The notes beneath the pieces were generated by a model, which made no database searches, was not told where the DNA came from, and worked only from the letters and a program-made list of their open reading frames with translations. DNA of 64,000 nucleotides, from contig CAVQNG010000025.1 of the NCBI GenBank assembly GCA_963713825.1, positions 892,415 to 956,414 on the forward strand, written 5' to 3'. Shown here in pieces: positions 2,024 through 37,800 of the stretch (position 1 is its first letter; the number at the start of each line of letters is the position of its first letter). The stretch comes from an uncultured Acidobacteriota bacterium (GTDB lineage: Bacteria; Acidobacteriota; Thermoanaerobaculia; Multivoradales; JAHEKO01). Both the position numbers and the translations under genes were made by a program.

Positions 2024-5000
2024 CTACTCCGGAATCAGTACCGCCGGAGCCGCTTTCTCTCTCACCAGTCGATTGAGCTCTGCAATCTCTTCGCCAACGA
2101 CGCCGTCCAGTTCCGCCAGATAGCCGTCCAGCTCGCCTCGCAGGTCGCGATAGAGCTCGATGGCCCCGTCGGTCGGTGCTGCGTCGGCACTTTGCACGCC
2201 GCTCATGACATCCAGGATCTTGTTGTCGAGACGAGGTGGGTAGTTGAGAGTGTCCTGAGAGGATTCGTTCTTGGTCTGATAGATCTTCTCTTCGATGCTG
2301 GTGAGCTGCTCGCCGATCGTTTCTGAGATCTCGGCGATGCCGTCTCCATAGCCAGCCTTCTCCAACCGCTCGGCCAGCACCTCGACCTGGGAACGCATGT
2401 CGCGGATCTTGCCGAGCGCCTGATGGCTGGCGCTCAGAGTCTCCCAGATTTCGGTCGCCAGCTCGTACTGGGCAACCAGGTCCGCCTGGCTGACGTCGAT
2501 CCGGGGATCCTTGACCAATTGGATGTCCACCGTCTGGCTCCAGTCGCCGAGAGTCAGACGAGCCTGGTAGCTACCTGGCGGGACGATCGGGCCACTGGCC
2601 ATCCCCCAGAGGACGGCGTCTTCGACGAGCTCCGCATCGTGCCGGCGCAGGTTCCACACATACCGGTTGAGACCCGTCTCGGCTGTCAGCTTGCGACTGC
2701 CGGCCGCCTCCGGAAAGAAGCGCCGCCATGGGCTCGGCGCCTGGGGCTCGTCCTTCTCACTGGAGAGGGTCCGCAAGACAGATCCTTTCGCGTCCAGAAT
2801 CTCGAGCTGAAGCTCGTCCTCGATCTCCGCGCCCAGCAGGTAGTAGAGGATGACTCCAGTCGGGGGGTTCGAGCCCGAACCACCGCTGCCGAAGCCACCG
2901 CCACCGCCGAATCGATAGGTCGTCCGTGGTTGAAACAGGTGGGCCTCTGCATCAGCCATTTCCGGGGTCATGCTGTGCAGCGGGGTCAGGTCGTCGAGGA
3001 TCCAGAAGGAGCGACCCTGTGTCGCTACGACCAGGTCCCGGCCTGTGATGGCCATGTCGGTAATCGGTGTGATGGGCAGATTCTGTTGGAAGGGTTCCCA
3101 AGTCTGGCCATCGTCGAACGAGGAATAGAGGCCGAACTCCGTGCCTGCGAACAGGAGTCCTTTTCTGTCCGGGTCCTCGCGAATCACTCGAACGAAGTGA
3201 TCGGCGGGGATCCCATTCGTGCCTGTGGTAATCAAAGACCAGCTGTCACCATAGTCGTTGGTGCGAAAGACATACGGCGTGAAGTCGTCTGTCCGGTAGC
3301 GCGTTACCGCAAGGAAGGCGCGTCCGGGGTCGTGAGAGGAGAGCTCGATCATGTTGACCTGGCCCCAGTCCGGCATCCCGGCTGGCGTGATCTCGTTCCA
3401 GGTCTCGCCATTGTCACGAGACAGGTGCACCCTGCCGTCGTCGGTTCCCGCCCAGAGGAGTCCCTGTGTTTGCTTCGACTCCTCGAAGGCGAAGATCGTG
3501 TCGTAGACCTCGACGCCCGTGTTGTCCCACGTCAGGTCACCACCCGCGTAGCCCTGTTTTTCTGCATCGTTGCGAGTCAGATCGGGACTGATCACCTCCC
3601 AGGACTGACCGTGATCGGTAGAGCGGTGCACGAACTGCGACGTGTGGTAGAGGACATCGGGATCATGCGGGGAGAGCCGGATGGGAGCGTTCCACTGAAA
3701 GCGGTAGCGCAGATCCTTGGCTGCCTGACCAACAGCGAGTTGAGGATAGGCATTGATCTCCCTCTCCTGGCCGGTGGCGTGGTCGTATCGTCCTATGGAA
3801 CCGCCGTAGCAGCCAGCGTAGGAGATATTGGGATCACGCGGATCGACCGCTACGTGGCCACTCTCGCAGCCACCGATGACATACCAGTCATGGCGAGCGA
3901 TACCCGAGGACGAGGTACGGCTGGGCAGGGAGACGCACGAATTGTCCTGCTGGCAACCGTAGACGCGGTAGGGGAACTGGTTGTCCACCGTGACGCGATA
4001 CATCTCCGACGTAGGTTGGTTGCCCTGCGTCGACCAGGTCTGGCCACCGTTGAAGCTGACGTTGGCACCACCGTCATTGCCGTTGATCAGGTTCATCGGA
4101 TTGTCGGCGTTGATCCAGAGATCGTGATGGTCGCCGTGAGGGGCCCGGATGTAGGAAAACGTCTTGCCGTCGTCGGTCGATTTCCAGATGCCGGTATTCA
4201 GCACGTAGACCGTTTGCGAGCTCTGAGGATCCGCAAAGACATGCGTGTAGTACCAGGCCCGTTGCCTGAAATTCCTGTCAGGGTTGATGAGGCGAAATTC
4301 ATCGCCACCGTCATCGGATCGGAAAAGGCCGCCTTCGTCCGCTTCGACAAGGGCCCAGACCCGACTGGAATCAGCCGCTGAAACACTGACTCCGATGCGT
4401 CCTTTGATTCCCTCTGGTAAGCCCTCGGTCAGCTCCTCCCAAGAGTTTCCACCGTCCTTGGTTCGGTAGAGGCCACTGAACTCTCCACCGCTCAGCATGG
4501 TCCATGGCTTGCGCTCGGCCTCCCAGATGGCGGCAAACAGGACGCGCGGGTTCGAGGGATCCATCGTCAGGTCCACTGCTCCAGCTCGTTCGTTCACATA
4601 CAGGACCTTGTCCCAAGTCGAGCCGCCGTCGAGGGAGCGGAACACGCCCCGTTCGTCGTTGGGCCCGAAAATGTGCCCCAGAGCTGCGACGTAGACGACA
4701 TCGGGATCCTTCGGGTGCACGTGGATGCGGGCTATCTGTCCCGCTTCGACGAGACCGACGTGATCCCAGGTCTTGCCCGCATCGGTGGAGCGATACACGC
4801 CGTTACCCGGTGACACGTTCCCTCTTGGACAGGCGGAGCCGGTACCGACATAGACGACGTTCGGATCCGAAGGCGCTACAGCAACGGCGCCGACCGAACC
4901 CACCTCGAAGCTGTCGTCCGAGATGTTCTTCCACGAGGTCCCCGCGTCGGTGGTCTTCCAGACGCCTCCTCCAGTCGAGCCCATGTAGTAGGTCAGGGAG

Positions 5001-5221
5001 TCGCCTGGGACTCCGGTGACAGCCGTAACACGGCCGCCTCGGAAGGGACCGATGTTGCGGAACTTCATGGCTTCGAGAAAAGCTTCTTCGGAGTCGTCTT
5101 GCGACTCGCTGTCGGCAGCCAGCACTGGCTGGCCGATGACCATGAGAGTTAGGCAGAAGAGCAGCCCTGCCACCAGGGCGACGAGACTCGGGTTCCCCCC
5201 CAAGTGCTGTGAACGCATCAC
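2024..5221 (-). CDS. Secreted VPS10/sortilin-like beta-propeller glycosyl hydrolase (BNR/Asp-box repeats) with C-terminal helical region
   Basis: Signal peptide; FRNIGPFRGGRVTAV start; many S/T-x-D-x-G-x-T/S-W repeats; RFQWNAPI. Confidence 0.85.
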   Translation of the reverse strand: MMRSQHLGGNPSLVALVAGLLFCLTLMVIGQPVLAADSESQDDSEEAFLEAMKFRNIGPFRGGRVTAVTGVPGDSLTYYMGSTGGGVWKTTDAGTSWKNISDDSFEVGSVGAVAVAPSDPNVVYVGTGSACPRGNVSPGNGVYRSTDAGKTWDHVGLVEAGQIARIHVHPKDPDVVYVAALGHIFGPNDERGVFRSLDGGSTWDKVLYVNERAGAVDLTMDPSNPRVLFAAIWEAERKPWTMLSGGEFSGLYRTKDGGNSWEELTEGLPEGIKGRIGVSVSAADSSRVWALVEADEGGLFRSDDGGDEFRLINPDRNFRQRAWYYTHVFADPQSSQTVYVLNTGIWKSTDDGKTFSYIRAPHGDHHDLWINADNPMNLINGNDGGANVSFNGGQTWSTQGNQPTSEMYRVTVDNQFPYRVYGCQQDNSCVSLPSRTSSSGIARHDWYVIGGCESGHVAVDPRDPNISYAGCYGGSIGRYDHATGQEREINAYPQLAVGQAAKDLRYRFQWNAPIRLSPHDPDVLYHTSQFVHRSTDHGQSWEVISPDLTRNDAEKQGYAGGDLTWDNTGVEVYDTIFAFEESKQTQGLLWAGTDDGRVHLSRDNGETWNEITPAGMPDWGQVNMIELSSHDPGRAFLAVTRYRTDDFTPYVFRTNDYGDSWSLITTGTNGIPADHFVRVIREDPDRKGLLFAGTEFGLYSSFDDGQTWEPFQQNLPITPITDMAITGRDLVVATQGRSFWILDDLTPLHSMTPEMADAEAHLFQPRTTYRFGGGGGFGSGGSGSNPPTGVILYYLLGAEIEDELQLEILDAKGSVLRTLSSEKDEPQAPSPWRRFFPEAAGSRKLTAETGLNRYVWNLRRHDAELVEDAVLWGMASGPIVPPGSYQARLTLGDWSQTVDIQLVKDPRIDVSQADLVAQYELATEIWETLSASHQALGKIRDMRSQVEVLAERLEKAGYGDGIAEISETIGEQLTSIEEKIYQTKNESSQDTLNYPPRLDNKILDVMSGVQSADAAPTDGAIELYRDLRGELDGYLAELDGVVGEEIAELNRLVREKAAPAVLIPE

Positions 5222-6553: not shown

Positions 6554-7276
6554 CTAAGGGTCCGTCTTGTAGGCGGACCAATCGCCTGAAGCAGGCCGTC
6601 CTGCCGACAGGTCGAAGGCGAACCACCTGCCTCGGATCTCGCCCTTGACGGTGTCGAGCACGCCTTTCACTGTCGCCACCGCGCCCTTGCTCGTGTCGAT
6701 CATCTCGAGTTGTAGCTTGTCGCCTACCAGGGTGCCCCGCATGGCACCCTGGTTGCCATTGCTCATTCGGTAGGTGCCGGTTACCAGGAGGTTTTCGGCT
6801 TCCAGCTCGAAGACCCCATACAGATCGATTGGCTGCGCCTCGACCCGCCAAACTCCGGCGATGCCACCGCTGCGTTCTTGTCGGCGTTCTGCCGTCACCT
6901 CGTACTCCTGGACGATGCTGGAGAGTCGGCGCATGCGCTCGTACATTCGCTGACGGGCTGCAGCGCTTTCTTTGGCGCGAGCACAGGCCGCCTCGATTGC
7001 CACTCCCACTTCTTCCTCCAAGAGCCCGAAGTTCGACAGCGAGGCGTTGGGGTCCTCGATCAGCTCGTCGAGCTCGGCATTGAGCCGCTGCAGATCGGCT
7101 ACCGCTCGATTCTCGCGGGCTCGAGCACGACCATACGCCGCGACCTCCTCGTCGAGCAGGCCGGCCTCGACGGAGAAGGCACTTTGGAGGCTGGCCGCGG
7201 TCTCAGCCGGTGCAGCAAGAGTCGGAAATACAACCAAGAGAACGGAACACAAAAGCAGCATCTTGAAGCTTCGCAT
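6554..7276 (-). CDS. Hypothetical exported protein: signal peptide, coiled coil, C-terminal beta-rich domain
   Basis: Hydrophobic N-terminus with AxA-like site, heptad-rich A/E/R/L segment, then alternating beta pattern. Confidence 0.7.
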   Translation of the reverse strand: MRSFKMLLLCSVLLVVFPTLAAPAETAASLQSAFSVEAGLLDEEVAAYGRARARENRAVADLQRLNAELDELIEDPNASLSNFGLLEEEVGVAIEAACARAKESAAARQRMYERMRRLSSIVQEYEVTAERRQERSGGIAGVWRVEAQPIDLYGVFELEAENLLVTGTYRMSNGNQGAMRGTLVGDKLQLEMIDTSKGAVATVKGVLDTVKGEIRGRWFAFDLSAGRPASGDWSAYKTDP

Positions 7277-7454
7277 CTCTCTATCCTAGCTTGAATTTCG
7301 GTCGGCTTCGCACCGGGTTTCGAAGGTGTTCCGAGCCCTATCTGTAACGAACCGGGAGCTCGTTGGACGAATTATCACCGCTCGTCGATGGGCGGCGGAG
7401 TCCGGACTCCAGGAAGCAGCCGATCACGATCACATTCACACGAGGAGACCAGAC

Positions 7455-8264
7455 ATGAAGCGAAAGAAGTGCTTCCTCGGAGGCACCCTACTCCTGTTCG
7501 TAGCAGCTCTGCCTACGGTCGCGGCAGCCGGCACGGAGACCTTGACAATCTTGAACAAAGCGATCAGTCCCGAGAATCGGACCCTCTCCTTCGATCTCTG
7601 GAACACCACTGACCATGTGATCACAGCCTGGCGCCTCAGCTTGGCCCACGACGATGGCTTCGGAAAGAGCCGGCGCTCGATCCTGGATCAGGACTTTGCC
7701 CTGAGTGCATCGAGGGCAGGAAACGTGGAGCCAGCCATTCGGGGCGCCAGGATCGAGGGACCGATCCAGCCCGGCGAGGTGGTTGCCTCGGAATGGGGCA
7801 TCGAGCTGCCTACAGGAGGACACGAAGCTGCGGCCCTTGGTCTGCGAGTGGCGGCAGTGGTGTTCGAAGATGGGAGCTTCGCTGGTGATCCAGACGGTTC
7901 GAGGGCGATTCTCGCGGCACGATCGGCGCGTCTCGAGGAGATGCGGCAGGCCCTCGACTTCCTGCGGGAGACAGGTGCGGCAGGCTTGCGAGGCGGCCTG
8001 GCCAAGCGGAGATTTGCGGCCAAGGCCCAGGAGCTCCGAGAGGAGAGCAGGGGTTCCGAGATGGCAGATGGACTTCGCAGGGAGGTCGCTGCTCAGATGT
8101 CGGCTGCCAAGTTGGAGGTGGCCGAGCTCCTCGAATCTCTCCAGGATTCGATCGGGGTCGAGGTCTGGACAGGAGACGATGGGCCTGTCGATACTGCTAT
8201 TCGGGACCTGCAGGCACAAATCGACGCTGGTGAGAGCCGTGAGGCTCGAAAGGAGGCGCAATGA
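7455..8264 (+). CDS. Hypothetical exported protein, translationally coupled to the SPM-domain gene
   Basis: GAGGAG RBS, ATG 7455, signal peptide ending AAA; NxTxxxITAW and AVVFEDGSFAGD segments; ATGA overlap with next gene. Confidence 0.75.
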   Translation: MKRKKCFLGGTLLLFVAALPTVAAAGTETLTILNKAISPENRTLSFDLWNTTDHVITAWRLSLAHDDGFGKSRRSILDQDFALSASRAGNVEPAIRGARIEGPIQPGEVVASEWGIELPTGGHEAAALGLRVAAVVFEDGSFAGDPDGSRAILAARSARLEEMRQALDFLRETGAAGLRGGLAKRRFAAKAQELREESRGSEMADGLRREVAAQMSAAKLEVAELLESLQDSIGVEVWTGDDGPVDTAIRDLQAQIDAGESREARKEAQ

Positions 8265-9259
8265 TGAGGCGTTCGCGAACTGGGCTGTTGTCGAGCCTTG
8301 CCGTTGGCTTCCTGTTGCTCGGCTCCATCGATGCTTCGCAGGCTCTCTGTAAGGGCTCCCTGAATGTGGTCGGTGGTGGCTCGGAAATGTCTCGTCGGTG
8401 CCCTTCACCGAATCTGAGGAAGACGTGGCGCATCGAATGTCAGGACGCCTGTGACTATGTGACGTCATCGTTTCAGCAAACGCTGACGGGCTTCGGTGAT
8501 TGTATGAAGGATCCGAAGTGCACCACCGGCATCAAATGCCTGCCGCTCGCGGGCAGCGACATTCGAGCTTACAATCCGCCCTCACTATCCAGCAGTATCT
8601 TGAATCGTGCCGGTCGGTACACCCTACCGCCGTGCGTCTCTCCGGCCTGTTTCACCAGTAGCGTCAATACGATGACGGTCTACTGTGACTGTGATGGCGA
8701 CCACCCAGGTTGGTGGTGTGCGGAGAACGATCCCCTGATCCTCAGTCTCGACGACTCCATCTACCGACTGACGGATCGCGATGGTGGTGTCGAGTTCGAT
8801 TTGGGTGCCAAGGGTGTCGCCCATCAGGTTCCCTGGACCGCCAGGCTCTCGAACGAGGCGTTCTTGGTGCTGGATCGTGATGGCAATGGCACGATCGATG
8901 ATGGAACCGAGTTGTTCGGCGATGTGACTCCTCAGCACCAGACAGCCAACCCCAATGGATTCGAGGCTCTGGCCTTGTACGATGACTCCTTGAGCGGTGG
9001 CAATGAGGATGGTCGGATCGATGCAGCGGATGAGATCTTCATCAGGCTCCAGCTTTGGATCGATCGGAATCACAACGGTCGATCCGAGTCGGCAGAACTG
9101 AGCTATCTCTCGGACTCGGAGGTCGTGTGGATCGGCCTCTCTTACAGGCAGAGTGATCGGGTGGATCGTTTTGGCAACGAGTTTCGCTATCGTGGTCGAG
9201 TAGGCCTGGCCAGCGGCCAAAAGCGGGCGATCTGGAACGTGTTCTTGAACGCCGAGTGA
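8261..9259 (+). CDS. Sec-exported Cys-rich protein with C-terminal FrpC-like calcium-dependent self-processing module (SPM)
   Basis: Signal peptide; 12 Cys in residues ~29-157; then D|PLILSL...FLVLDRDGNGTIDDGTELFGD...NGFEALALYD...DGRIDAAD..F..LQLWIDRNHNGRSE..EL, matching the FrpC SPM pattern; AAGGAGG RBS. Confidence 0.8.
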   Translation: MMRRSRTGLLSSLAVGFLLLGSIDASQALCKGSLNVVGGGSEMSRRCPSPNLRKTWRIECQDACDYVTSSFQQTLTGFGDCMKDPKCTTGIKCLPLAGSDIRAYNPPSLSSSILNRAGRYTLPPCVSPACFTSSVNTMTVYCDCDGDHPGWWCAENDPLILSLDDSIYRLTDRDGGVEFDLGAKGVAHQVPWTARLSNEAFLVLDRDGNGTIDDGTELFGDVTPQHQTANPNGFEALALYDDSLSGGNEDGRIDAADEIFIRLQLWIDRNHNGRSESAELSYLSDSEVVWIGLSYRQSDRVDRFGNEFRYRGRVGLASGQKRAIWNVFLNAE

Positions 9260-9353
9260 GCCAGACGCCCCGATCCGGAGGACTTCGAATGCACCGGAGG
9301 CCGGTGGCCTGGAGCGGGCGCTGGCCTCCGGTCCTTACACAGGAGGTAGAGAG

Positions 9354-9599
9354 ATGCTGGGGTTTTCCCTGACGAAGGTTGTGGAGGTTCTGGTCGTTGT
9401 GCTGGTGCCGATGGCGATGGTTTTTCTCGGGGATCGCAATACATCGCTGCCCAGTCGGCTGGCATTGGGCCTGGGCCTGGTGGGCGGGTTGCTTTTCTTG
9501 GTGTCCGTCCTCTCCAGTTCGGGTGTTGCAGAGGAGTACTTGGTGGCGGCGACGGTCGGTCTGGGCCTTGGCGGCTGGTCGCGGTCTACTTCACCCTGA
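9354..9599 (+). CDS. Small membrane protein (81 aa, about 3 hydrophobic segments)
   Basis: Strong AGGAGGT RBS before ATG; hydrophobic segments; 14-nt overlap with convergent gene. Confidence 0.55.
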   Translation: MLGFSLTKVVEVLVVVLVPMAMVFLGDRNTSLPSRLALGLGLVGGLLFLVSVLSSSGVAEEYLVAATVGLGLGGWSRSTSP

Positions 9600-10149
9600 T
9601 GATGAAGTAGGTGCCGTGGTACTGCGGACGGCCGTCCCCTCCATGGTTGTGGTTGCCGTTGACGTTGATCTGCAGATCGTGCGTATGCCGGAAGCCACGG
9701 TTGCCCGACGAGTCGAGATAGCGGGGTGAGCCTGACACCTGATTCACTCGATTGGTCGCGTTGCCGCGGTGATTGTGCTGGCCGCCCATGGTGATCTCGT
9801 TGGATCCACCCGTGCTGTTCAGCTCATCCGCGGAGGCCACGCCCATGACAAATCGGTTGTCCATGAGGTTGGGTAGCGCTTTGCCATGAAACGGCGAATT
9901 GGCATCGCTGACGGTTCGACCGTCGCAGGGGAGCCACCCCTGAGGTAGCGAGTCGAGGCTGCCAACGTAGGGCAGAATGGCACCGACCGGGACACCGATG
10001 AGGTTCGAGCCTCCGCCGCTGGAAGCCGGATCGGCAGGGGCCATGTCCCCACGGTCGGGCTGTGCAAGGAGTCCGAAAGCGCCAAGGGCGGATACTCCTG
10101 CAACAACCAAGATGAGCCAGAGCCGGTGCTGTCGGGATGAGGGTCTCAT
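9586..10149 (-). CDS. Exported phage tail-collar-domain / HxH fibre-like protein
   Basis: AGGAG RBS; N-terminal hydrophobic segment; PVGAILPY..PQGWLPCDG..LPNL..RFVMG collar motif; three HxH motifs; C-terminal FIIR. Confidence 0.75.
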   Translation of the reverse strand: MRPSSRQHRLWLILVVAGVSALGAFGLLAQPDRGDMAPADPASSGGGSNLIGVPVGAILPYVGSLDSLPQGWLPCDGRTVSDANSPFHGKALPNLMDNRFVMGVASADELNSTGGSNEITMGGQHNHRGNATNRVNQVSGSPRYLDSSGNRGFRHTHDLQINVNGNHNHGGDGRPQYHGTYFIIRVK

Positions 10150-10219
10150 GCTGATCTCCTTGCCGCCGTTTGGCAAGCGGTCCGTTCAATCGTTCGGTTA
10201 CTACCCGAGCCTAGCAGTT

Positions 10220-24702: not shown

Positions 24703-27700
24703 ATGAAGAACAGCAGACATCGGGCAGTCGCCATCGTTGGTGTCGGGGCGGTGCTTCCGGATGCGCCGGACGCTCCGACCTTCTGGGAGAACATCAAACA
24801 GAGTCGGTACAGCATCAGTGAGGTTCCCAAAGAACGGTGGGATCCAGAGCTGTTCTGGGATCCCGACCCCAAGGCGCCGGCGAAGACCTACTCGAAGATC
24901 GGCGGCTGGGTGAAGGAGTGGGCCTGGGAGCCGCTGAAGTGGAATCTGCCAATCCCACCGAGAGTGGGCGAGTCCATGGATCGGACCCAGAAGTGGGCCC
25001 TGGTGGGCGCTCGCGAGGCATTGGCAGACTATGGGTATCCGCAGCGCCCCCTGGACCGTGAACGGACAGCCGTGATCCTGGGCAACGCCATGGGCGGCGA
25101 CCTTCACTACGAGACGGCCACCCGTATCTCCTATCCCGAGATCGCCCAGGAGCTGCGGCGAGCGCCGAGTTTCGCGGCGCTGCCGGAGGAAGTCCGGGCC
25201 AAGGTCAGCGACGAGCTCGGCAGCCAGGTGAGTGAGCTCTATCCCCGGATCACCGAAGACACGATGCCAGGAGAGCTGGCGAACATCATTGCCGGCCGGA
25301 TTGCCAATCTGTTCGACTTTCATGGACCGAACTACGTGGTCGATGCGGCCTGCGCTTCCGCCATGGCAGCGATTCACGCCGCCATCGAGGGGCTCGAGGA
25401 AGAGGACTACGACGCCGTTCTGACGGGTGGAATCGACGCCAACATGAGCGCCGCTACGTATACCAAGTTCTGCAAGATCGGCGCCCTTTCCGCGACCGGG
25501 ACCCGGCCGTTCGCCGATGGCGCCGATGGCTTCGTCATGGGCGAAGGAGCGGCCATCTTCTTGTTGAAGCGGCTGCGCGATGCCGAGCGGGACGGTGACT
25601 CCATCTATGCCGTGATTCGCGGTCTGGGCGGATCGAGTGATGGCCGGGGCAAGGGGATCACGGCGCCCAATCCGGTCGGTCAACGATTGGCGGTGGAGAG
25701 AGCCTGGAGACGGGCTGGACTGGTTCCAGATGGGGCCACGCTCATCGAAGGGCACGGCACTTCGACACGGGTCGGAGACGTAGTGGAGCTGCAGTGTCTG
25801 ACCGAGGCATTCATCCCCTACGGATTTGCACCCGGCTCGCTGCCTCTCGGCTCGGTCAAGTCGAACATCGGCCACCTCAAGGGCGCGGCCGGTGCGGCTG
25901 GGATTCTGAAGGCGACCTATGCCTTGCGGGACCAGGTCCTACCTCCGAGCCTCGGTTTCGAGCGCCCCAATCCCAATATCGACTTCACGAGCTGCCCATT
26001 CTTCGTCAATACGAAGCTGCGGCCCTGGACGGCTCGAGAAGGACAGGTGAGGCGGGCTGGCGTCAGTGCTTTCGGCTTTGGTGGAACCAACTTCCATGCG
26101 ATTCTGGAGGAGTACGTTCCCGGCCAGATTGTCGACCGGCCAGAACCTGTCCTTACCGTGGCCCGAGAGTTTGGTTCATCGGCTGTCACGAAGAGCGAAA
26201 AGGTGCCGCTGCGGGGCGCCCTGGTCCTGGGCGGTGATTCCCTGGCCGATGTCGAGGTCAGACTCAAAGGTGTGCTCGCCAAGGCAGAGTCTGGAGAGCT
26301 GCCGCAAGTCCAGGCACCAGCTGAAGCGGACCTGCGAAGCACCACCCGGTTGGCAATCGACTACGGTGACGGCGCTGAGTTGATCAAGAAAGGCGGCAGG
26401 GCGCTGTCGACGATCGAGTCGGGCAAGCTCGAGACCTGGAAGGCGCTCCGGGGTCGAGGCATCTTCCTTGGAACGGGCCAGCCGCCCAAGGTCGCCATGC
26501 TCTTTACGGGTCAGGGATCGCAGTATCTCAACATGCTGAGACAGCTGGCCTCGGACGAGCCGGTGGTGACCGAGACCTTTCGCGAGGCCGACGAGGTCAT
26601 GAAGCCGCTGCTCGGCCGCCCTCTGACCGAGTACCTGTTCGTCGACCCCATGGGTCCGCTCGAAGAAGAGGCCGCCAATGATGCGCTGCGCCAGACAGCC
26701 ATCACCCAACCGGCGGTGCTGGCGACGGACATAGCTCTGTTGAGGCTCCTGGGTACCTATGGTGTCGTGCCAGACATGGTGATGGGCCACAGCCTCGGTG
26801 AGTACGGCGCACTGGTGGCTTCGGGGGCGATCAGCTTCGCTCACGCCCTGGAGGCCGTCAGTGCCCGTGGGCAGGAGATGAGCCGGATCTCGACGGACGA
26901 CAACGGCTGGATGGCCGCGGTCTTCGCCCCCTTGGAGGAGATCGAGCGCATTCTCTCGACGATCGAGGGCTACGTCGTTGTGGCCAATATCAACAGCTAT
27001 AGCGAAGCGGTCATCGGCGGCGCCAGCCAGGCCGTCGAGAGGGCCATCGAGGCGCTGCAAGCGGCTGGGTACCAGGCTCAGCGACTACCGGTGAGCCACG
27101 CTTTTCACACGCAGATCGTGGCTCCATCCAGCGCCGCAGTTCGGCAGGTGTTGGGAAGGATGGGACTGCAGCCGCCGGAGATTCCCGTTGTCGCCAACGT
27201 CAGCGGCGACTTCTACCCGATGGGACCGGGAGTCGAGCCCGAGATGATCGAAATTCTCGCCCGTCAGGTCGCCGAACCCGTGCAGTTCGTCAAGGGATTG
27301 GAGGCTCTGTACCGTGCCGGCACGAGGGTGTTTGTCGAGTGTGGCCCGAAACGGGCCCTGCAAGGCATGGTTCGAAGCGTCTTTCAAGAGCGCGACGACG
27401 CCGTTTCCCTGTCCACGAATCATCCGCGCATGGGTGACGTGGCCTCCTTCAACCAGGCCCTGTGCGGACTGTACTCGGCAGGGCTGGGTGTCGGCAGGGT
27501 TCCTGTTGCCGAGGAGCCCATCGTCATGCGGAGCCCGGTCGGGTCGCGGCCCGCCCTGGCCGTGGACTCCGAGATCGAGTCGATTCAGGCACCGGCCGAT
27601 GCGGCAGGTGTCGACGCCTCTCGTCTCGACAAGGCCGCCTACCTCGAGTTGGGACAGATGTTCGCCGGTTTCCTCGACAAAGGCCTCGAAGTGGTGGGCC

Positions 27701-30700
27701 GCAAGAGCGCGCCCACAACCTCCGAGCGCGGGGTCGTGATTACAGGTGCGGCCATCGGATTGCCGGGTACCGCGAAGGTGTTCGACGACTCGAATCTGGG
27801 ACGACTCTTGACGGGCCAGCAGTTCATCGGAGAGGTACCGGACGATCTGCGACAGGAGATGGTGGCGAGGAACATCACGAGACTGGTGAAGAGCGAGAAC
27901 GGTGGCCCGAGATTCGAGACCATCGAGGGCGTCGATGAGGTGATCAAGCTGGCGGCGCGCCGAGGGGAATTGGATCTGGTCGAAGAGTTCGGCTTCCCGA
28001 GCGACCGCCTGGAAGCGCTGGACGTGGTGACCGAGTTGGCCATCGGATCGGGACTCGACGCCCTCCGGGATGCTGGACTACCGCTCGTCAGGCGCTACAA
28101 AACCACGACGACTGGCAGCAAGCTCCCTGACCAATGGGGCCTGGCCGACGAGGTGCGCGACGAAACCGGCGTGATCTTCGCGTCCGCCTTCCCGGGCGTC
28201 AACTATTTCGCCAGGGAGTCGGGTCGTTACTACACCGCGCAGGCCGCCCAACGACGCCTCGAGGAGCTGCAGAGTCTGAAAGACCGGATGAGCTCGAGCG
28301 GAACGGTTTCCGATGAGTCCATGAGCGAGTTGGATCGGCATCTGGACGAGGCGCGAGAAGAAGTCGAGGCCAGCCCCTACACCTTCGATCGACGATTCCT
28401 CTTCAGACTCTTGTCGATGGGCCACTCCCAGATGGCCGAGTTCATCGGCGCCCGGGGGCCGAACACACAGATCAACGCAGCCTGTGCCAGTGGTACACAG
28501 GCCATCGGTTTGGCCTCGGACTGGATCCGCGCTGGTCGTTGCCGTCGAGTCGTGATCGTCTCGGCGGACGACGTGACGAGCGACGATTTGATGGGCTGGA
28601 TCGGAGCCGGCTTCCTGGCCACGGGTGCGGCGGCTACCGATGCCGAGGTCGAGGAGGCCGCCATCCCGTTCGATCGGCGTCGTCACGGCATGCTGATCGG
28701 CATGGGGGCGGCGGCAATCGTCGTGGAAAGCGAGGAGTCGGCAAGCGAGAGAGGGATTCAGCCCATCTGCGAGGTGCTGGCGACCGCCACGGCCAACAGC
28801 GCCTATCACGGCACCCGTCTCGATGTTGCCCATATCTCCGAGACGATGGAACGGCTCATTACCGAGGCCGAAAAGAAATGGGGTATCGATCGATCTCAGA
28901 TCGCTCCGGAGACGGTCTTTATCTCCCATGAAACCTACACACCTGCCAGGGGTGGCAGTGCGCAGGCCGAGATCTTTGCCCTCCGAAGTGTCTTCGGAGA
29001 GCTGGCTGACAAAATTGTCATAGCGAACACCAAGGGCTATACGGGACATCCGATGGGAGTGGGAATCGAGGACGTCCTGGCCATCAAGGCCCTGGAGACC
29101 GGTTTGGTACCTCCGGTGGCCAACTTCAAGGAAGTCGACCCGGAGCTCGGAGAGCTCAATCTGTCCCGTGGTGGCAGCTACCCGGTGCGCTATGCGCTGC
29201 GGCTGGCCGCCGGATTCGGATCGCAGATCAGCATGGTATTGCTCCGATGGGTCCCCGCCCCGGGTGGCCAACGCCCGGAGATCGACCAGCTGGGCTACGA
29301 CTATCGTCGCGTCGAGCCAGAGAGATGGCGGCAATGGTTGGACTGGGCCAGCGGTCATCCAGGTGCCGAAGTCGAAGTCGAGCACCGGACTCTGCGGATC
29401 AGAGACGAGGGGCCGCCGAGCCAGGTCCTGCCTCGGCCAGTGGCAAACCAGGAGCACCCCGCAGCTCCACCTGCCGATTTCAGCCGTCCTGCCCAGGTCG
29501 CATCTGAGCAGGAGCCGACGGCGGCAGCCGGCCAAGATCCATCCGAGCCGTCGCCGCAGCCCATCCGGCCTTCGACTGCTTCGGTGGCTCCACCTCCAAC
29601 CCCTGTTGGTGGCTTGGATCCCATCCAGAAACGCGTCTTGGAGATCGTGGCGGCGACGACTGGCTATCCGGAAGAGATGTTGGACCTGGATCTGGACATG
29701 GAGGCCGATCTGGGGATCGACACGGTGAAGCAGGCGGAGATGTTCGCGGCGATCCGCGAGGAGTGGGACATCCCGCGTGACGATACGTTGCAGCTGCGGG
29801 ACTACCCGACATTGGCCCGAGCGATTCAGTTCGTCTTCGACCGACGGCCCGACCTGAAGGGCCAGGAGGTGATAGCTGCAGCTGCGGCCCCTGCAGCCGT
29901 CGAGAGCCAGGCGGAATCTGCGTCCGACGACGCGGTCCATCCCGTTCAAAAGCGAGTTCTGGAGATCGTCGCGGCGACGACTGGCTATCCGGAAGAGATG
30001 TTGGATCTGGATCTGGACATGGAGGCCGATCTGGGGATCGACACGGTGAAGCAGGCGGAGATGTTCGCGGCGATCCGCGAGGAGTGGGACATTCCGCGTG
30101 ACGACACGTTGCAGCTGCGGGACTACCCGACATTGGCCCGAGCGATTCAGTTCGTCTTCGACCGACGGCCTGATCTCGCTCCGGGAGCGACCGCAGATGC
30201 TTCCGCCAGTGCTCCCGAGACTCCGGTTCCTGGGACTGAAGAAGAGCACACTCGGGAAATACCTACTGCCGCGACTTCGGTGCACCGCAGGGTGCCGGCC
30301 GTGATGCTGTTACCCGCTCTCGACCTCTGCAAGAGGACCGGCGTCCGATTGCAGAAGGGCTCGCGTGTGGTTGTCATGGCGGACAGGGGTGGTGTCGGCA
30401 AGGCCCTGGAGCAGCGACTCGAACGATTGGGTGCCGAGGTTCTCCTCCTGGAGGCCAACCTCGATGCCGAGGAGGTCGTGCCTCGTCTCGAGGAGTGGAA
30501 GAGGGATGGCGAGGTGCAGGGGATGTACTGGCTTCCCGCGCTCGATGCGTCTGGAGATGCATCCAGCTCCGTGCCCGAGGAGTGGCAGGCGGGCCTGACG
30601 CGCCGGGTCAAGTTGTTGTTCCAGGTTGCAAAGGTGCTGTACGACTCCTTGAATCGAGCCGATTCGTTCCTGGTTGCCGGCACCCGCCTGGGAGGTCGGC

Positions 30701-32758
30701 ACGGCTACGATGAAGCTGGGGCTTGGGCCCCACTCGGAGGCGGAGTCTGCGGCTTCACCAAGGCCCTCAAGAGGGAAAGGCCAGCGTCGCTCATCAAGGT
30801 CGTCGACTTCGAGCCCTCACGGGCGACCGCGGCTCCGGCCGATCGGCTCATCGAGGAGACTCTGCGGGATCCCGGCTCGGTCGAAGTGGGTTACTTCGGA
30901 GCCGAGCGATGGGGAGTCGGTCTGCGGGAGGAGGCCCTGGAAGAAGCCGCCGAACCTGTCGAGATGGGCGCTGAAAGTGTCTTTGTTGTCACCGGAGCCG
31001 CTGGCAGCATCGTTTCGGCGATCGTGGCGGATCTGGCGCAAGGCTCGCAAGGCATCTTTCATTTGCTGGATCTCGCACCGCCTCCCGACCCTGAAGAAGA
31101 AGACCTGCAGCGATTTCGTTCGGACCCCGAGTCTCTGAGGATGGAGCTCTTCGAGCGCATGAAGGCCGAAGGGGAACGGGCCACCCCAGCCAAGGTGGAG
31201 CGCCAGCTCTCCGTCCTCGAGCGGTCTCGATCGGCTCTGGAAGCCATAGAGTCCGTGGAGGCTGTCGGTGGGCAGGCGCACTACCACTCGGTTGACCTGC
31301 TCGACGCCGAGGCGGTGACTCGAGTTATCGACGAGGTGCGCGAGCGCCATGGCAGGATCGACTTCCTCATCCACGCCGCCGGCCTCGAGATCAGCCATGC
31401 CCTGAGCGACAAGAGTGCCGAGGAGTTCGACCTCGTTTTCGACGTCAAGAGCCAGGGTTGGTTCCATCTTCTCGAAGCGGCAGCAGAGATGCCCCTGGGC
31501 GCGACGGTTGTGTTCAGCTCCATCGCGGGGCGTTTCGGCAACGCGGGTCAAACGGACTACAGTGCGGCCAACGATTTGCTCTGCAAACTCACCTCGAATC
31601 TGCGTAGGAGTCGCCCCCAGACGCGCGGTGTGGCGATCGACTGGACCGCCTGGGCTGGAATCGGAATGGCCAGTCGCGGATCGATCCCGAAAATGATGGA
31701 ACTGGCCGGGATCGGAATGTTGTCGCCCGAGTCGGCCCTGCCGATCGTCCGGCAGGAGCTCACAGCCGGAACCCGGGGCGAGGTGGTGATTGCCGAGTCC
31801 CTGGGTTTATTGCTGGAGGACTGGGATCCGGAGGGCGGGTTGGACTCCGAAGCCATTCGGTCAAGGCAGCGGGGACCGATGATCGCCGGCTTCGAATCAC
31901 GGCAGACGCCACGGGGTCTGGTGGCCGAAGGACTGTTGAGCCCCACTGAGCAGCCGTTCCTCGACGACCATCGGATCGAAGGAACAGCGGTCTTGCCAGG
32001 AGTCATGGGAATCGAGGCCTTTGCCGAGGTCGCCGGTCTTCTGGTGCCTGATCGGCAGGTCACGAGACTCGAGGAGGTGGAGTTCCTGTCGCCCTTCAAG
32101 TTCTATCGGGATGAGCCCCGGGCTGTGGAGGTGTCGGCCTTTCTGGGTCTGGAAGGGGAGGAGGTCGTTGCCGCTTGTCGATTGCTGGGCCGGCGGCAAT
32201 TGGCCCTGCAAGCGGAGGAACAGGAAACCGTGCACTTCGTCGGTCGAGCCTGGATGGGAGATCCGTCCCCTGCTGCTGCTTCTATCCAAGCTCCAGCAGC
32301 TCCCCAGGAAGCTCTGCGCGGGTGCGGACATCTATCGCGTCTATTTCCACGGTCCGGCCTACCAGGTACTCGACCTCGCATGGCGACAAGAGTCGAGTCT
32401 GATCGGCAGGTTGTCAGAAGAGCTTCCTCCGAATCACCTTCCGAAGGAGCGAGCCCTGCAAATGGCTCCGCGCCTCATCGAGCTCTGTTTTCAGACAGCC
32501 GGACTCTGGGAGATTTCACAGAGTGGCAGGCTGGGCCTTCCCTGGAAGGTGGCGTCGGTCAGCGTTCATCGACCCGAAGACGCCGCTCGGGGTCGCATCT
32601 TGGCGGTCGTGCAGCCGGCCTCCGACGGTGGTTTCGATGCCCAGGTCATCGACGAGGCAGGCAATCTACTGGTGGATCTGTCGGGCTACAGGACCGTCGA
32701 GTCTGCAACGGAGGTCGAGCCTGAAGCACTGGCCAAGCTGCGCAGCTTCCTGGGCTAG
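24703..32758 (+). CDS. Iterative type I PKS / Pfa-like synthase, KS-AT-KS-ACP-ACP-KR-DH (frameshift near 32280-32325)
   Basis: KS1 DAACAS/EGHGTST/KSNIGH; AT GHSLG and HAFH; KS2 NAACAS/SHETYT/TKGYTGH; ACP LGIDTVKQ x2; KR GQTDYSAAN; DH HRIEGTAVLP, with YFHGPAYQ continuing in the +1 frame to TAG 32758. Confidence 0.9.
29617..30177 (+). repeat. Direct duplication of the ACP-coding segment (~240 bp, offset 321 bp)
   Basis: Two near-identical copies encoding QKRVLEIVAATTGYPEEM...FVFDRRPDL, with a few synonymous differences. Confidence 0.95.
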
Positions 32759-32776: not shown

Positions 32777-33562
32777 ATGAATCCGAGAGAGGGAGCCCAT
32801 CACCAGAGGTCGAGTCCTGGCCCCTGGTGGCTGGCGAAGGGTCTCGAAGAGCTTCCCACCAACCTGGATTGGCTGAGCTCGGAAGAGCACCGACATCTGG
32901 CGAGACTCGGGGTCGAGAAGCGGCGCCACGACTGGCTGCTTGGACGCTGGACTGCCAAATCGGCACTCCTGCAAAGCCCTTACTTTCCGGGCTCCGGCAC
33001 GGCTCCTGAGGAATTGACCGTCTGGCAGGCCGCAGACGGGGCTCCGGAAGCTCTGTTCCGAGGGCGAGCTCTACCGCTGACTCTCTCTATCAGCCATCGA
33101 AGTGGTCGAGGATTGTGTGTTCTGGCCCCCGAGGCGCTGCTTGTCGGCTGTGACCTCGAGACAGTCGAGGCCCGAAGCCCTGCCTTCTTGCAGGACTACT
33201 TCACGTCCGATGAGCAGGCTGCTCTGCGGGCGGCTCCTGCCAACGGCAGAGATCGAATCGCGACACTGTTCTGGGGGGCGAAGGAGAGCGCCCTGAAGGC
33301 ACTGAGGCTAGGGCTGAGAGCCGATACCCGACGGATCCGGGTCGAATTGCCTGCCGAGTCGGGGGCAGACGAGAAATGGTGCAACCTGGTCGTGCGGGAT
33401 AGGGAGTCCGATCGGGGGTTCGGAGGGTGGTTTCGGATGCTGGAAGGGCTGACCTTGGTGGTGGTTTCCTCGCCTCCTTCCGAGGCTCCTGTGTCTCTGG
33501 TAGGAAATTCCAGATCTGGCAGCTGGTCAGAGGGCAGGGGGGGAAAAGGTGGCGACCTCTGA
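32777..33562 (+). CDS. Sfp-type 4'-phosphopantetheinyl transferase
   Basis: WLLGRWTAK, LSISHR, VGCDLE, FWGAKESALKA; immediately downstream of the PKS. Confidence 0.9.
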   Translation: MNPREGAHHQRSSPGPWWLAKGLEELPTNLDWLSSEEHRHLARLGVEKRRHDWLLGRWTAKSALLQSPYFPGSGTAPEELTVWQAADGAPEALFRGRALPLTLSISHRSGRGLCVLAPEALLVGCDLETVEARSPAFLQDYFTSDEQAALRAAPANGRDRIATLFWGAKESALKALRLGLRADTRRIRVELPAESGADEKWCNLVVRDRESDRGFGGWFRMLEGLTLVVVSSPPSEAPVSLVGNSRSGSWSEGRGGKGGDL

Positions 33563-34825: not shown

Positions 34826-37800
34826 TCAGGGCTGAAACTGTACCGCCAACTCATGCCACATCTTCACCGGAACACCGTCCTTGGTGGCGGCCCTGAAGGT
34901 CGCCCTACGGGCCGCTTCCAGGGTCTCCTCGTCGAGGCCGACCTTCTGTCTCAGGCCTTCCACCAACCTGGCCTCCAGGACCTGGCCGTTCTCATCGACC
35001 AGTACCGCGATTCGAACCGTGCCCGTCGCTCCGACTCGCCGGGCCACTTCTGAGTAGGCCGGTGGCCGGAACGACTGCACCAGGGGTCCGATGACTCCCG
35101 GTCCCTGCTCGACCAGATCTCCCGGCTGCGTCGCTGTCGCCTCTTCGGCTGGCGGCGCACTCGGCAGATCTGGCTCTGGCTCGGTTGCCTCCGGTTCAGT
35201 TGATGAATCCGGGCTTTCTGGCGGCTCGCCTCCCTCGGCTGTCAAGGGCGGGCTGGTCTCGAGTCCGGCGCTCTCCGAGTCCAATGAGATGGGCTCTTCG
35301 GCATCTCGATCTGCACCAAGCGAGGTGGAATTGGCGAGCTCGTCCTGGCCGAAAGGCGCGGACTCGGCTTCCTGAATGGTCGCGTCCCCGTTGTCGGTAG
35401 TCAGGTCCTGGCTTGTCGCTGCAGGCTCGGTCGAGTCGGGGATGAGCTCTGCGGAGGCCCTGGCGTCCAGCTCACCATCGGCGGCAAACTCCGGCGTCGA
35501 GATCAGCTCTTGAACCCTCTGGAGGTCCTCTTCGACTCGCCTCTCCAACTCGGGATCCGCGGTGCCCGCCTGAGTCTCTCGAGGTGGCGGCTGCTGGGCG
35601 ACGTCGGTCTGGGGCTGGGTTTCGCCGGCTGAGGCCTCATCGACCGCATTGTCTTCGGGAGCGACCTGCAAGACAGGCTCTGCGGGTGCTTGATCTTCGG
35701 GTTCAGGGGAAGGTGCAGCCTGTTCTCGGGTCGCTGCCGGGGGAGCTGCCCGAGTTGAACTGTCTTGGGGTGCTGTCTGATCCTCCGGGTCATCGGGATC
35801 GGGATCCAGACTGGCCTCTACCGCCTCGGGACGAAAGATCTCGGTTCTGGTGACCTGTGGTGACGCCATCCCCGAAGAATCCTGTGAATCCGGCGACTCA
35901 CCCAGGCGGCCTGCGGCCAGGTACCCACCGATCGCGAGCAAGACCACCACGGGCAGCAGCCTGGACAGCCACTTGAGGAAACCAGGACGCTGCTTCTCCT
36001 CCTCCTCGTCGGCTTCTTCCCCGACTCCTTCGACGATTGCCTCGTCCAGAAGGTCTTCCAAGGGCTCGGTCGATTGCTCGTCAACCTCTTCGGCTGCCGG
36101 TTCCGTTACGGCTGTGTCACGCTCCAGGGCCGTCGGCTCGCTCTTCTTGGTGGCCGACTCGGGCAGATCCAGCAACTCGCGAACGTAGCTACTCATCTCT
36201 CTTTGCCCTGGAGTCGGGTCGAACTCGGCCAGCAGCTCTTCGAGGCCGCCGAGCAGCTCGCCTGCCGTCTCGTACCGTTCGTCGGTCTCCTTGGCCAGTG
36301 CCTTGAGCAACAGGCCCTTGACTCGAGAGGGGATAGCCGGGTCCTGGATCACCCTTTCCGGCGTCTCACACTCCCGAACGGCTTCCAGCACGGCCAGCTC
36401 GCTTTCGCCAGTGAAGAGCCGCTCACCGGTGAGCATCTCGAAGAGCAGCGTGCCGGTGGAGAAGATGTCGGAGCGCGGATCGATGGGGCGCCCCCAGGCT
36501 TGCTCGGGCGACATGTACTGGAGCTTCCCCTTCAGGGCACCCATCTGTGTGGTGCTGATCTTGGACACCGCTTTGGCGATTCCGAAGTCACAGAGCTTGA
36601 TGTCGCCTTCATAGCTGATCAGAACATTCTGGGGTGAGACATCGCGGTGCACGAGTCCGAGCTCGGTGTTGTTGAAGTCCTTGCTGCGGTGCGCATAGTC
36701 GAGAGCGTCGGCGATCCGGGATGCGATGTAGAGTGCCAAGCCGGCTGGCAGTGGCTTGTCCCTCTTGCGTCCGGCATCGAGTAGGTGGCGGAGATTTTGT
36801 CCCTCGACATACTCCATGGCGATGAAGTAGTCATCATCGACCTTGCCCAGGTCGTAGATGTGGGTGATGTTCTTGTGATTCAGTTGGGCGGCCAACTTGG
36901 CCTCGTCGATGAACATGTCGACGAAATCCTGGTTCTCGGCGGGTTGAGGGAGAATCTTCTTGATCGCGACTCGCTTCTCGAAGCCCTCGACTCCCTGACG
37001 GCGCGCCTTCCAGACTTCGGCCATGCCGCCGAGGCCGATTCGTTCTTCGAGGGAGTACTCACCGAACTCGATCACAGGCTCGGAAGCCTGCTCCGGCTCC
37101 GGCTCGACTGCATCGACTGCCTGGTCGGGTTCTTCCGAGACGTCCTCTTCGTCGGCTGCTTCCGAGGTCTCTTCTGGCTCGTCTTCCTCCGCCTCGAGCT
37201 CTTCGGAAGTCTCAACCGCGTCCATCTCGTCGGCCTCTTCGGAAGCCGGCTCGTCAGGCTCGACATCGAGCGGGATGACGGGACCGTCCGGGGACCGGGG
37301 CTTGGCGATGTCGAGGTCACCGAGGGCCTGCGATAGCAGACTGTCGACGTCTGTCGTTGTCTCACGATCGACCTCGGTCTTGTCAGGCTCGGTTGCAGCC
37401 CCCAAGGAGGCAGCGAGAACGCCGGCCAGGGTATCGCTGAGCTTGGCTTCGAGATCGTCGTCCCGGTCTTCGACAGCAGGGGGCGTCTCGGGCTTCGGTG
37501 GAGCTGGCGTTGCGGCGGTTTCGCGCAAGAGCTCGGCTACATCCAGTTCTTCCTCCGGCTCGCCGACTTCCCTCGCCTGGGCTTCCACCGCATCGACGAG
37601 TGCCGGGACCGCCTCCTTGGCCAGCTCCTCCAGGTCTGACAGATCCATCATGCTGTCGTCTTGACTGGCGGCTGGCGCTTCAGCGGCGGCGGTCTCTTCG
37701 GGCTCTTCCTCGTCCTCCTCTACCGGCTGCACCGCAGTTGCGACTTCAACCTCGGCAGCTTCGACCTCTTCCTCGGTTTCTTCGGATTCGAGATCTTCCA

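Follow-up and report, generated by a model that had tools for sequence, protein, structure and literature searches.

An FrpC-type self-processing module at the C-terminus of a predicted exported protein with a conserved upstream partner in Acidobacteriota

Introduction

Work on the calcium-triggered cutting of an Asp-Pro bond, followed by linkage of the newly formed end, has so far been confined to a few RTX proteins from pathogens, and the reaction serves protein ligation as the NeissLock tool. The closest described systems are the self-processing modules (SPMs) of FrpC and FrpA from Neisseria meningitidis and of ApxIVA from Actinobacillus pleuropneumoniae. Here we describe a related module in a 64,000-nucleotide stretch of DNA from an uncultured Acidobacteriota bacterium (the window; assembly GCA_963713825.1, contig CAVQNG010000025.1, positions 892,415 to 956,414). 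The module ends a small protein that carries a signal-peptide-like leader and a cysteine-rich domain, hereafter the cargo, and whose gene directly follows that of an upstream partner protein (UP).

The SPM binds calcium with an affinity of ~150 µM, the cytosol holding <100 nM, and cross-linking of FrpC to other proteins is documented; D478 and D579 of FrpC are, according to Kuban et al., not catalytic (PMC7078468). Exchange of the Asp at the scissile bond (D414A) abolishes cleavage and coupling, the cleaved module gives hydrolysed, self-cyclised and target-linked products, and the residue before the Asp tunes the rate, with D, G and P being poor (PMC7846742). The anhydride of FrpC modules undergoes hydrolysis, cyclisation onto its own protein or coupling, within minutes, to a pre-bound partner (PMC7846742; PMC12538545). 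The lipoprotein FrpD, whose gene lies upstream of frpC, binds residues 1-414 of FrpC (dissociation constant ~0.2 nM; PMC5233953; PMC7078468). NeissLock consists of engineered binder-SPM fusions derived from the FrpC and FrpA modules (PMC7846742; PMC12538545).

The module in the window shares with FrpC/FrpA and ApxIVA its domain length, fold (structural alignment Z-score 20.5), Asp-Pro boundary, three EF-hand-like calcium loops, Trp-Trp pair and ELFGD motif, whereas its identity to the FrpC SPM is 31-32%. It is C-terminal instead of internal, a predicted N-terminal signal peptide takes the place of RTX repeats and a type I secretion system (T1SS), calcium site 1 is degenerate, the D579 counterpart is Asn, and five residues are inserted ahead of site 3. 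A small cargo with six likely disulfides would here emerge and fold before the SPM, reversing the order of export by T1SS. As with FrpD and FrpC, the SPM protein gene shares an operon with the gene just ahead of it, which encodes a seemingly exported partner; unlike FrpD, UP has no lipobox and no visible relation in sequence or fold, forms a single chain with the cargo-SPM protein in certain species, and its pairing is known from genes. The placement of a cargo or binding domain directly N-terminal to a C-terminal SPM also recalls NeissLock, which is meant to couple a pre-bound partner, but this cassette is natural rather than man-made and has its own diverged module and candidate partner.

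Autocleavage at GDPH sites can likewise leave a reactive Asp anhydride and is not known to be triggered by calcium in the same way. The domain concerned, von Willebrand D, is eukaryotic and of unrelated fold; the site in the window reads AENDPLIL and not GDPH, and Pfam gave no match to this domain. The likeness lies in Asp-Pro self-cleavage within a disulfide-rich secreted protein, as in the von Willebrand D assemblies of FCGBP and mucins (PMC8267560).

A homologue of the FrpC module outside RTX proteins

The protein and its module lie at:

8261-9259, + strand: cargo-SPM precursor gene (P0001), open reading frame (ORF) of 332 amino acids (aa)
8732-9256, + strand: FrpC-type SPM, residues 158-332, 19.5 kDa, isoelectric point (pI) 4.55, identified by sequence and structure matches

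That the last 175 residues are truly homologous to the FrpC SPM is virtually certain. A phmmer search against all PDB chains returned 6sjw_A (E = 5.3e-13; query 158-324 aligned to chain residues 1-163) and 6sjx_A (E = 8.9e-13), with only FrpC SPM entries above noise, and a profile built from 56 homologues matched the FrpC SPM at E = 5e-31. The AlphaFold model (predicted local distance difference test, pLDDT, 89.9) retrieved 6sjw with Foldseek at E = 1.1e-12 and a template modelling (TM) score of 0.78, normalised by target, followed by the precursor structure 6sjx at E = 3.4e-12. In VIA-align, model residues 158-332 superimposed on 6sjw over 157 residues (Z = 20.5; root-mean-square deviation 2.7 Å), the next row scoring Z = 3.4. 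The model matches the SPM fold, with two perpendicular beta-sheets and adjacent N- and C-terminal strands.

Pfam yielded sub-threshold EF-hand matches only (a weak EF-hand at 199-213), the copy searched containing no model for PF26745. NCBIfam matched neither this protein nor UP, the fusion of the two or two neighbouring proteins, PADLOC gave no match, and a cluster look-up returned no names. Every homologue listed in the protein collection bears the tag PF26745.1, as do RTX proteins that also carry PF00353, and PF26745 therefore already spans both RTX and non-RTX proteins. The protein in the window shows no GGxGxD motif and no HemolysinCabind (PF00353) match, and its module sits at the extreme C-terminus, the chain ending 6 residues beyond the last SPM strand. 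Among the ORFs at 2024-39571, to which the search for T1SS genes was confined, none matched an ABC exporter, HlyD or TolC family. The protein thus belongs to the SPM domain family and not to the RTX clip-and-link class.

Scissile bond and calcium sites

As functional residues we took those named by Kuban et al. (2020; PMC7078468), and the FrpC numbering derives from the PDB alignments:

8729-8734, + strand: scissile-bond candidate Asp157-Pro158 (GAT CCC), aligned to FrpC Asp414-Pro415
8744-8758, + strand: counterpart of calcium site 1, residues 162-166 (SLDDS), degenerate; compare FrpC D419-G424
8873-8911, + strand: calcium site 2, residues 205-217 (DRDGNGTIDDGTE), intact EF-hand-like loop; FrpC D462-E474
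9002-9031, + strand: calcium site 3, residues 248-257 (NEDGRIDAAD); FrpC D499-D510 region
9056-9097, + strand: Trp266 and calcium site 4, residues 266-279 (WIDRNHNGRSESAE); FrpC W519, with D521-E532 corresponding to D268-E279
9233-9244, + strand: C-terminal strand over the scissile bond, residues 325-328 (WNVF), from the profile alignment

The 6sjw chain begins at Pro415, which falls on Pro158, and the Asp of 6sjx falls on Asp157; the residue before it is Asn156. Calcium sites 2 and 4 are intact and site 3 is kept, with N248, D250 and D257 conserved in all groups and a 5-residue insertion relative to FrpC just ahead of it. At site 1, FrpC D419/D421/D423/G424 correspond to S162/D164/D165/S166 and D456 to E199, which leaves D164, D165 and E199 in place and Ser at the positions of D419 and G424. 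Site 2 is directly followed by L218-F219-G220-D221 (FrpC L475, G477 and D478), and the ELFGD motif is retained. Also present are the T-shaped Trp pair, W192 (FrpC W451; encoded at 8834-8836) and its partner W266, and the narrow-port residues L218, G220 and G233 (FrpC L475, G477 and G491). For the transient fifth calcium site (FrpC D414, D478 and D579), D157 and D221 are present, and Asn326 aligns with the third ligand, D579.

Leader, cargo and conservation of the junction

Upstream of the module lie:

8251-8256, + strand: Shine-Dalgarno-like AGGAGG, 4 nt 5' of the ATG at 8261 and 7 nt 5' of a second ATG at 8264
8261-8344, + strand: signal-peptide-like leader, residues 1-28, from the sequence, a modelled helix at 5-25 and the alignment of homologues
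8345-8731, + strand: cargo, residues 29-157, all-beta, 12 conserved Cys, 14.0 kDa, pI 6.7, last residue Asp157

The n-, h- and c-regions typical of type I signal peptides can be recognised in the leader, which has a basic MMRRSR, a hydrophobic LLSSLAVGFLLLGSI stretch and SQA ahead of L29. Residues 5-25 form a helix in the AlphaFold model, and a crude heuristic recognised the signal-peptide pattern in 55/56 aligned homologues. Leader cleavage is predicted after Ala28, export probably proceeds through Sec, and inspection of the leader revealed no lipobox. Tat export was considered and set aside: the twin Arg is not kept in orthologues, and a disulfide-rich, calcium-folded protein would fit Sec better. 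The gene is present in single copy in its own genome, and a spurious ORF is ruled out by hundreds of homologues and conserved synteny. A promoter and terminator scan of 7000-9700 gave signals no better than those of shuffled sequences.

The protein contains 12 Cys (positions 30, 47, 60, 64, 81, 87, 93, 125, 130, 142, 144 and 153), each retained in at least 44 of the 51 Asp-Pro members of the alignment; because all 12 are conserved, six disulfides are likely. AlphaFold models the cargo with high confidence as an all-beta domain with long hairpins, and a second Asp-Pro (residues 84-85) lies within it. For this fold Foldseek gave no match outside the SPM, VIA-align reached at best Z = 3.4 (rows for DUF3298, an uncharacterised Fervidobacterium protein and LptE-like proteins) and the ESM Atlas held no usable match, a weak or missing match being no proof of a new fold. 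With the cargo alone, phmmer found 6 proteins at E ≤ 1e-3 among 1.84 billion representatives, 5 of them ~330 aa long and of the same build. The Cys-rich domain is a conserved family seen only together with the SPM, with a median identity to the query of 45% versus 61% for the SPM.

To follow the junction within this family, membership was defined by a hidden Markov model (HMM) of the Cys-rich domain and not by the junction itself; the HMM was built from the 56-sequence alignment A1, whose members match by construction. The family comprises 63 of the 241 collected homologues, with Asp-Pro in 54, Ser-Pro in 5, Thr-Pro in 1 and Cys-Pro in 3 (fusions with UP, described below). All 46 members that score above the best Ser-Pro member (P0043) have Asp-Pro. 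Across 10 loci, Asp157 is encoded by GAT in 5 and GAC in 5, Pro158 by CCC, CCG or CCT, and Ser162 by both AGY and TCN codons; every one of the 56 sequences in A1 has Pro158 and Ser162. As codons vary while residues stay, Asp157, Pro158 and Ser162 are, on this sequence comparison, under purifying selection, which we read for the Asp-Pro, the three calcium loops and the Trp pair alike. The invariance of Ser162, reached from both codon families, likewise shows the divergence of the first calcium loop to be fixed in the clade and no sign of decay.

The original prediction had read the ORF at 8261-9259 as a signal peptide, a ~129-aa domain with 12 Cys and an FrpC-type SPM opening at Asp157-Pro158. 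The sequence agrees with this layout, and the profile and structure alignments it called for (E = 5e-31; Z = 20.5 to 6sjw) support the module. Its remark that the first calcium loop had diverged is accurate (S162/D164/D165/S166), as is the absence of RTX repeats and, among the ORFs scanned, of T1SS genes; the N-terminal export signal seen in their place agrees with the sequence and the modelled helix. The junction, whose lack of conservation among homologues would have counted against it, is Asp-Pro in 54/63 proteins with the same Cys-rich domain. Two further expectations failed: the Cys-rich N-termini are a conserved family and not hypervariable (median identity 45%, each Cys kept in at least 44/51), and use as a ribosomally synthesised and post-translationally modified peptide (RiPP) does not suit a folded 129-aa domain with no modifying enzymes nearby. 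The neighbours, in which no RiPP enzyme was found, are UP, a Collar-domain protein, a PMT_2 glycosyltransferase, a DUF711 protein and a BNR protein.

The upstream partner and the cassette

The protein was also predicted to be a minimal system, which the gene upstream speaks against, being conserved there and sometimes fused to it:

7455-8264, + strand: partner gene UP, 269 aa from Met44 of the ORF at 7326-8264; other pipelines make the same 269-aa call (P0245)

UP begins with a signal-peptide-like N-terminus without a lipobox. Its AlphaFold model (pLDDT 77) consists of an Ig-like beta-sandwich (~30-144) and a four-helix bundle (146-268), for which fold searches gave generic matches only (5tta_B at Z = 9.2, ApaG at about Z = 7 and helical-bundle rows). 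No Pfam, NCBIfam or PADLOC family matched, and the ESM Atlas shows 30 clusters of hypothetical proteins for UP, mostly from Acidobacteriota. Its stop codon TGA (8262-8264) overlaps both candidate starts of the cargo-SPM gene (8261 and 8264), an arrangement that suggests translational coupling; the 4-nt stop/start overlap recurs in 7 other loci.

Orthologous SPM genes are directly preceded, in the same orientation, by a gene for a UP homologue, mostly with this 4-nt overlap. We saw this arrangement in three genomes belonging to the genus, several times over in G031, in G412, G364 and G162, and also in named metagenome-assembled genomes (MAGs) of Acidobacteriota. Within a set of 94 SPM ORFs, which is non-random in that eight loci were chosen for containing orthologues, 23 have a UP-family ORF at most 150 nt upstream on the same strand (20 with the first-round HMM). 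UP precedes 9/9 Asp-Pro orthologues with a recognisable Cys-rich domain, spread over three families of the phylum. The UP-associated SPM proteins measure 322-398 aa, apart from one 182-aa fragment, compared with a median of 425 aa for the others.

Three proteins from different sources (P0130, P0134 and P0139; 632-641 aa) are natural fusions in which UP (~8-250) is joined through a linker to a Cys-rich domain (~330-460) and an SPM (~460-640). Their UP segments match at E = 1.8e-15, 2.5e-15 and 3.3e-06 with an HMM built without the fusions, and no internal signal peptide was found in them. Two genomes from the genus, G003 and G004, have all the neighbouring genes (PMT_2, Collar-domain, 240-aa, DUF711 and BNR) and lack the cassette; the 266 nt in its place still encode 50 residues left over from the UP 5' end (E = 1.5e-7 and 2.3e-6). 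The UP and cargo-SPM genes are hence present or absent together, and their absence from these two genomes is probably due to loss. In G031 (C1:4672000-4700000; loci L016 and L017) several UP and SPM pairs and fragments stand in tandem within ~25 kb, a paralogous expansion of the cassette.

Gene pairing, the apparent translational coupling and the fusions combine to make a link between the two proteins likely. We regard a functional partnership as highly probable, and the same evidence suggests that the link is probably physical.

Junction variants in the wider family

A word-indexed search returned 473 relatives of 182-581 aa and 430 of 582-2000 aa. A scan of species-representative genomes gave at least 599 matching stretches and at least 545 confirmed loci, nearly all from Acidobacteriota MAGs; Blastocatellia, Pyrinomonadaceae, Terriglobia, Vicinamibacteraceae and Bryobacterales are among the listed matches. 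In a sample of the source phylum, 49/401 genomes had a match at E ≤ 1e-5, and among relatives 17/41 did, a tally that includes the source genome and the unpublished G006.

Aligned to the SPM HMM, the 241 proteins read Ser-Pro in 142 cases, Asp-Pro in 69, Thr-Pro in 19 and Gly-Pro in 1, and the 10 that remain unaligned at the junction include the three UP fusions. The junction residue covaries with positions 326 and 162: Ser/Thr-Pro modules have Asp at 326 in 159/161 and Asp at 162 in 152/161, and non-RTX Asp-Pro modules have Asn326 in 50/63, Ser162 in 59/63 and Asp165 in 53/63. The change from Asn to Asp at the position of FrpC D579 may compensate for the Ser/Thr-Pro junction. A quick maximum-likelihood tree of 133 modules (all members with the Cys-rich domain or of RTX type, and every third of the remainder) contains an RTX group of 13 rows, a large Ser/Thr group of 50 and a Cys-rich-domain group of 62, with Shimodaira-Hasegawa-like approximate likelihood ratio supports of 99, 97 and 88. 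The Cys-rich-domain group holds 56 Asp, 5 Ser and 1 Thr. On this tree the Asp junction needs 6 changes, at least 2 of which are forced by well-supported branches.

Across the homologues P0043-P0241 and the loci L049-L129, where Ser-Pro and Thr-Pro prevail and Cys-Pro or Glu-Pro is rare, the residue before the Pro almost always carries a nucleophile, a hint that the SPM fold may support a second processing chemistry. Ser, Thr and Cys are the classic nucleophile set of autoprocessing, on which inteins, Hedgehog, SEA and GPS depend. Only the sister clades, in which Ser, Thr or Cys precedes the invariant Pro, resemble these, with no homology; the query has Asp. Ser-Pro also occurs in some proteins with many RTX repeats. 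In P0061, P0071, P0074, P0101, P0112 and others, a C-terminal SPM follows reprolysin-type metallopeptidases (PF13688, PF13582) or other large N-terminal regions, with no UP neighbour. Asp-Pro modules occur in non-RTX proteins outside Acidobacteriota as well, namely P0232 (1184 aa; source name Streptococcus sp.) and P0228 (744 aa), the latter with a Big_6-type domain tag and a C-terminal SPM.

Proposed mechanism and alternative readings

We propose that the two genes form an accessory cassette of exported proteins in which a calcium-triggered, self-cleaving cargo-SPM protein yields an anhydride that is either hydrolysed or captured by an amine; taken as a whole, this reading seems to us a little better than even. 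The precursor would be made as a signal peptide, a six-disulfide beta cargo (29-157) and a C-terminal SPM (158-332), and would cross the inner membrane unfolded via Sec, N-terminus first, with the cargo oxidising and folding before the SPM emerges. Outside the calcium-poor cytoplasm the SPM would bind Ca2+, fold and strain the Asp157-Pro158 bond, and the Asp157 side chain would attack its own carbonyl, as in FrpC. The expected products are a 14.0-kDa cargo with a C-terminal Asp anhydride and a free SPM of 19.5 kDa. The short-lived anhydride would then be hydrolysed, amounting to simple release, or be captured by a nearby amine. Because of this short life only a pre-docked molecule would be linked efficiently, and the co-expressed UP, which we infer to form a complex with the cargo, would be the obvious and likeliest candidate. 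Calcium-dependent cleavage at Asp157-Pro158 is in itself likely, given the purifying selection read for the Asp-Pro, the three calcium loops and the Trp pair, whereas a covalent link to UP or another defined target is doubtful.

Several observations weigh against the proposal. In the module, site 1 lacks the counterparts of FrpC D419 and G424, the D579 position is Asn326 and site 3 carries a 5-residue insertion; the SPM homologues assayed to date are 60-98% identical, together with ApxIVA (PMC12538545; PMC7078468), compared with 31-32% here. No strongly conserved Lys offers itself for linkage in the cargo, where K54 is found in 31/51 and K83 in 28/51, and comparison of homologues shows no invariant Lys in UP. 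The junctions of the 23 UP-associated modules are Ser-Pro in 11, Asp-Pro in 9, Thr-Pro in 1, Glu-Pro in 1 and unreadable in 1, and the fusions have Cys-Pro (read in P0134, all three being unaligned at that column). If the non-Asp relatives form no anhydride, the shared role of the cassette needs none, and the prevalence of Ser/Thr-Pro in the wider family weakens anhydride stapling as a shared purpose. Signal peptide and Sec route are read by inspection of the sequence alone, and family and fold searches gave neither cargo nor UP a recognisable function.

The same build of UP, Cys-rich domain and SPM with Ser, Thr, Glu or Cys before Pro, the repeated switching between Asp and Ser (6 changes on the quick tree, at least 2 forced) and the lack of a conserved Lys in cargo or UP would all suit a module that merely clips. 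The SPM would then be a self-removing C-terminal pro-domain that senses calcium and helps folding or export, its anhydride would be hydrolysed, and UP would bind the cargo non-covalently as chaperone, inhibitor or co-factor. Hydrolysis is a normal in vitro fate of the FrpC anhydride (PMC7846742), and many Acidobacteriota proteins, some of them of the PF13688 reprolysin type, bear the SPM at the extreme C-terminus like a removable tag. FrpC, however, does cross-link other proteins (PMC7078468), Asp is strictly kept in the query clade together with the Asn326/Ser162 pair, which suggests that the carboxylate matters, and cleavage by the Ser/Thr-Pro modules is itself presumed. We consider clipping without linkage unlikely, though worth keeping in mind. 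That the bond is not cut at all, the SPM serving as a calcium-binding structural domain of an intact 32-kDa two-domain protein that acts with UP, appears improbable to us. The degenerate site 1 (S162, S166) and the Asn at the D579 position point that way, as does the lack of a junction Asp in most relatives (Ser-Pro 142, Thr-Pro 19, Asp-Pro 69 of 241), given that D414A abolishes FrpC cleavage (PMC7846742); yet Asp157-Pro158 and the narrow-port residues W192, L218, G220 and G233 are conserved, D478 and D579 are reported not to be catalytic (PMC7078468), Asn can ligate calcium through its carbonyl, and a nucleophilic Asp, Ser or Thr at the junction in 230/241 is a pattern unexpected for a purely structural site.

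A third possibility assigns the cassette to antagonism, with the cargo as a secreted antibacterial or toxic mini-protein, UP as its periplasmic immunity protein or inhibitor and the SPM for maturation or activation only. Presence or absence of the cassette as a unit within one genus, the tandem UP and SPM pairs within ~25 kb in G031, the faster evolution of the cargo than of the SPM (median identity 45% versus 61%) and the apparent export of both proteins are in keeping with it. No toxin, immunity or defence family was matched in Pfam, NCBIfam or PADLOC, however, UP-first gene order and natural UP-cargo fusions are unusual for toxin-immunity pairs, and no outer-membrane-crossing secretion system was found among the nearby ORFs scanned (2024-39571); we rate this explanation very improbable. 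Returning to the calcium-triggered cassette proposed above, it can be taken further. UP and the cargo-SPM protein could form a self-contained, Sec-dependent device for covalent ligation that couples the cargo to UP or to an envelope amine (peptidoglycan or lipid), and the Ser/Thr/Cys sisters could run a second chemistry by acyl shift or attack of the carboxylate at the D579 position. This extension is speculative and, in our estimate, rather unlikely. Were it true, Acidobacteriota would hold hundreds of natural calcium-triggered ligation or cleavage modules with different warheads.

Significance

Cut-and-link chemistry may be far more widespread in nature than the pathogen RTX proteins suggest, as the same module stands here at the C-terminus of a small, seemingly Sec-type protein in a conserved operon with an uncharacterised partner, and belongs to a large uncharacterised Acidobacteriota family (at least 545 loci in one scan). 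If cleavage takes place, the cassette would be a natural example of the binder-SPM design and the family a pool of diverged modules for protein engineering. The pairing and the fusions single out UP as a candidate target of the link step, a reaction still poorly understood even for FrpC, and the switch between Asp and Ser/Thr/Cys, with its change at the D579 position, offers a handle on how the fold activates the bond. In the literature searched, where coverage of subscription journals is thin and supplements are excluded, we came upon no account of SPM proteins that have a signal peptide and are not of RTX type, nor of UP, no paper naming PF26745 and none linking a self-processing module to Acidobacteria.

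Other genes in the window

Convergent to the cassette, a 196-aa protein (9586-10176, - strand) shows a weak Phage Tail Collar match (E = 1.5e-4, below the Pfam cut-off); its gene is conserved in the genus with or without the cassette. Divergent from UP lies the gene of a 240-aa protein with a signal-peptide-like start (6554-7276, - strand), without a family in the databases searched, NCBIfam included; it is conserved in the genus and was not found beside distant cassettes. A 1065-aa secreted-looking protein (2024-5221, - strand) combines Sortilin-Vps10 with BNR/Asp-box repeats. A 2673-aa multidomain synthase (24703-32721, + strand; KS, AT, carrier-protein, KR and DH domains) is followed by a 4'-phosphopantetheinyl transferase (32777-33559, + strand), and the pair resembles a synthase locus of the polyketide or polyunsaturated-fatty-acid type. 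A 1149-aa protein (34829-38275, - strand) joins a Ser/Thr protein kinase (407-669) to a C-terminal TonB_C domain (1071-1148), an unusual pairing.

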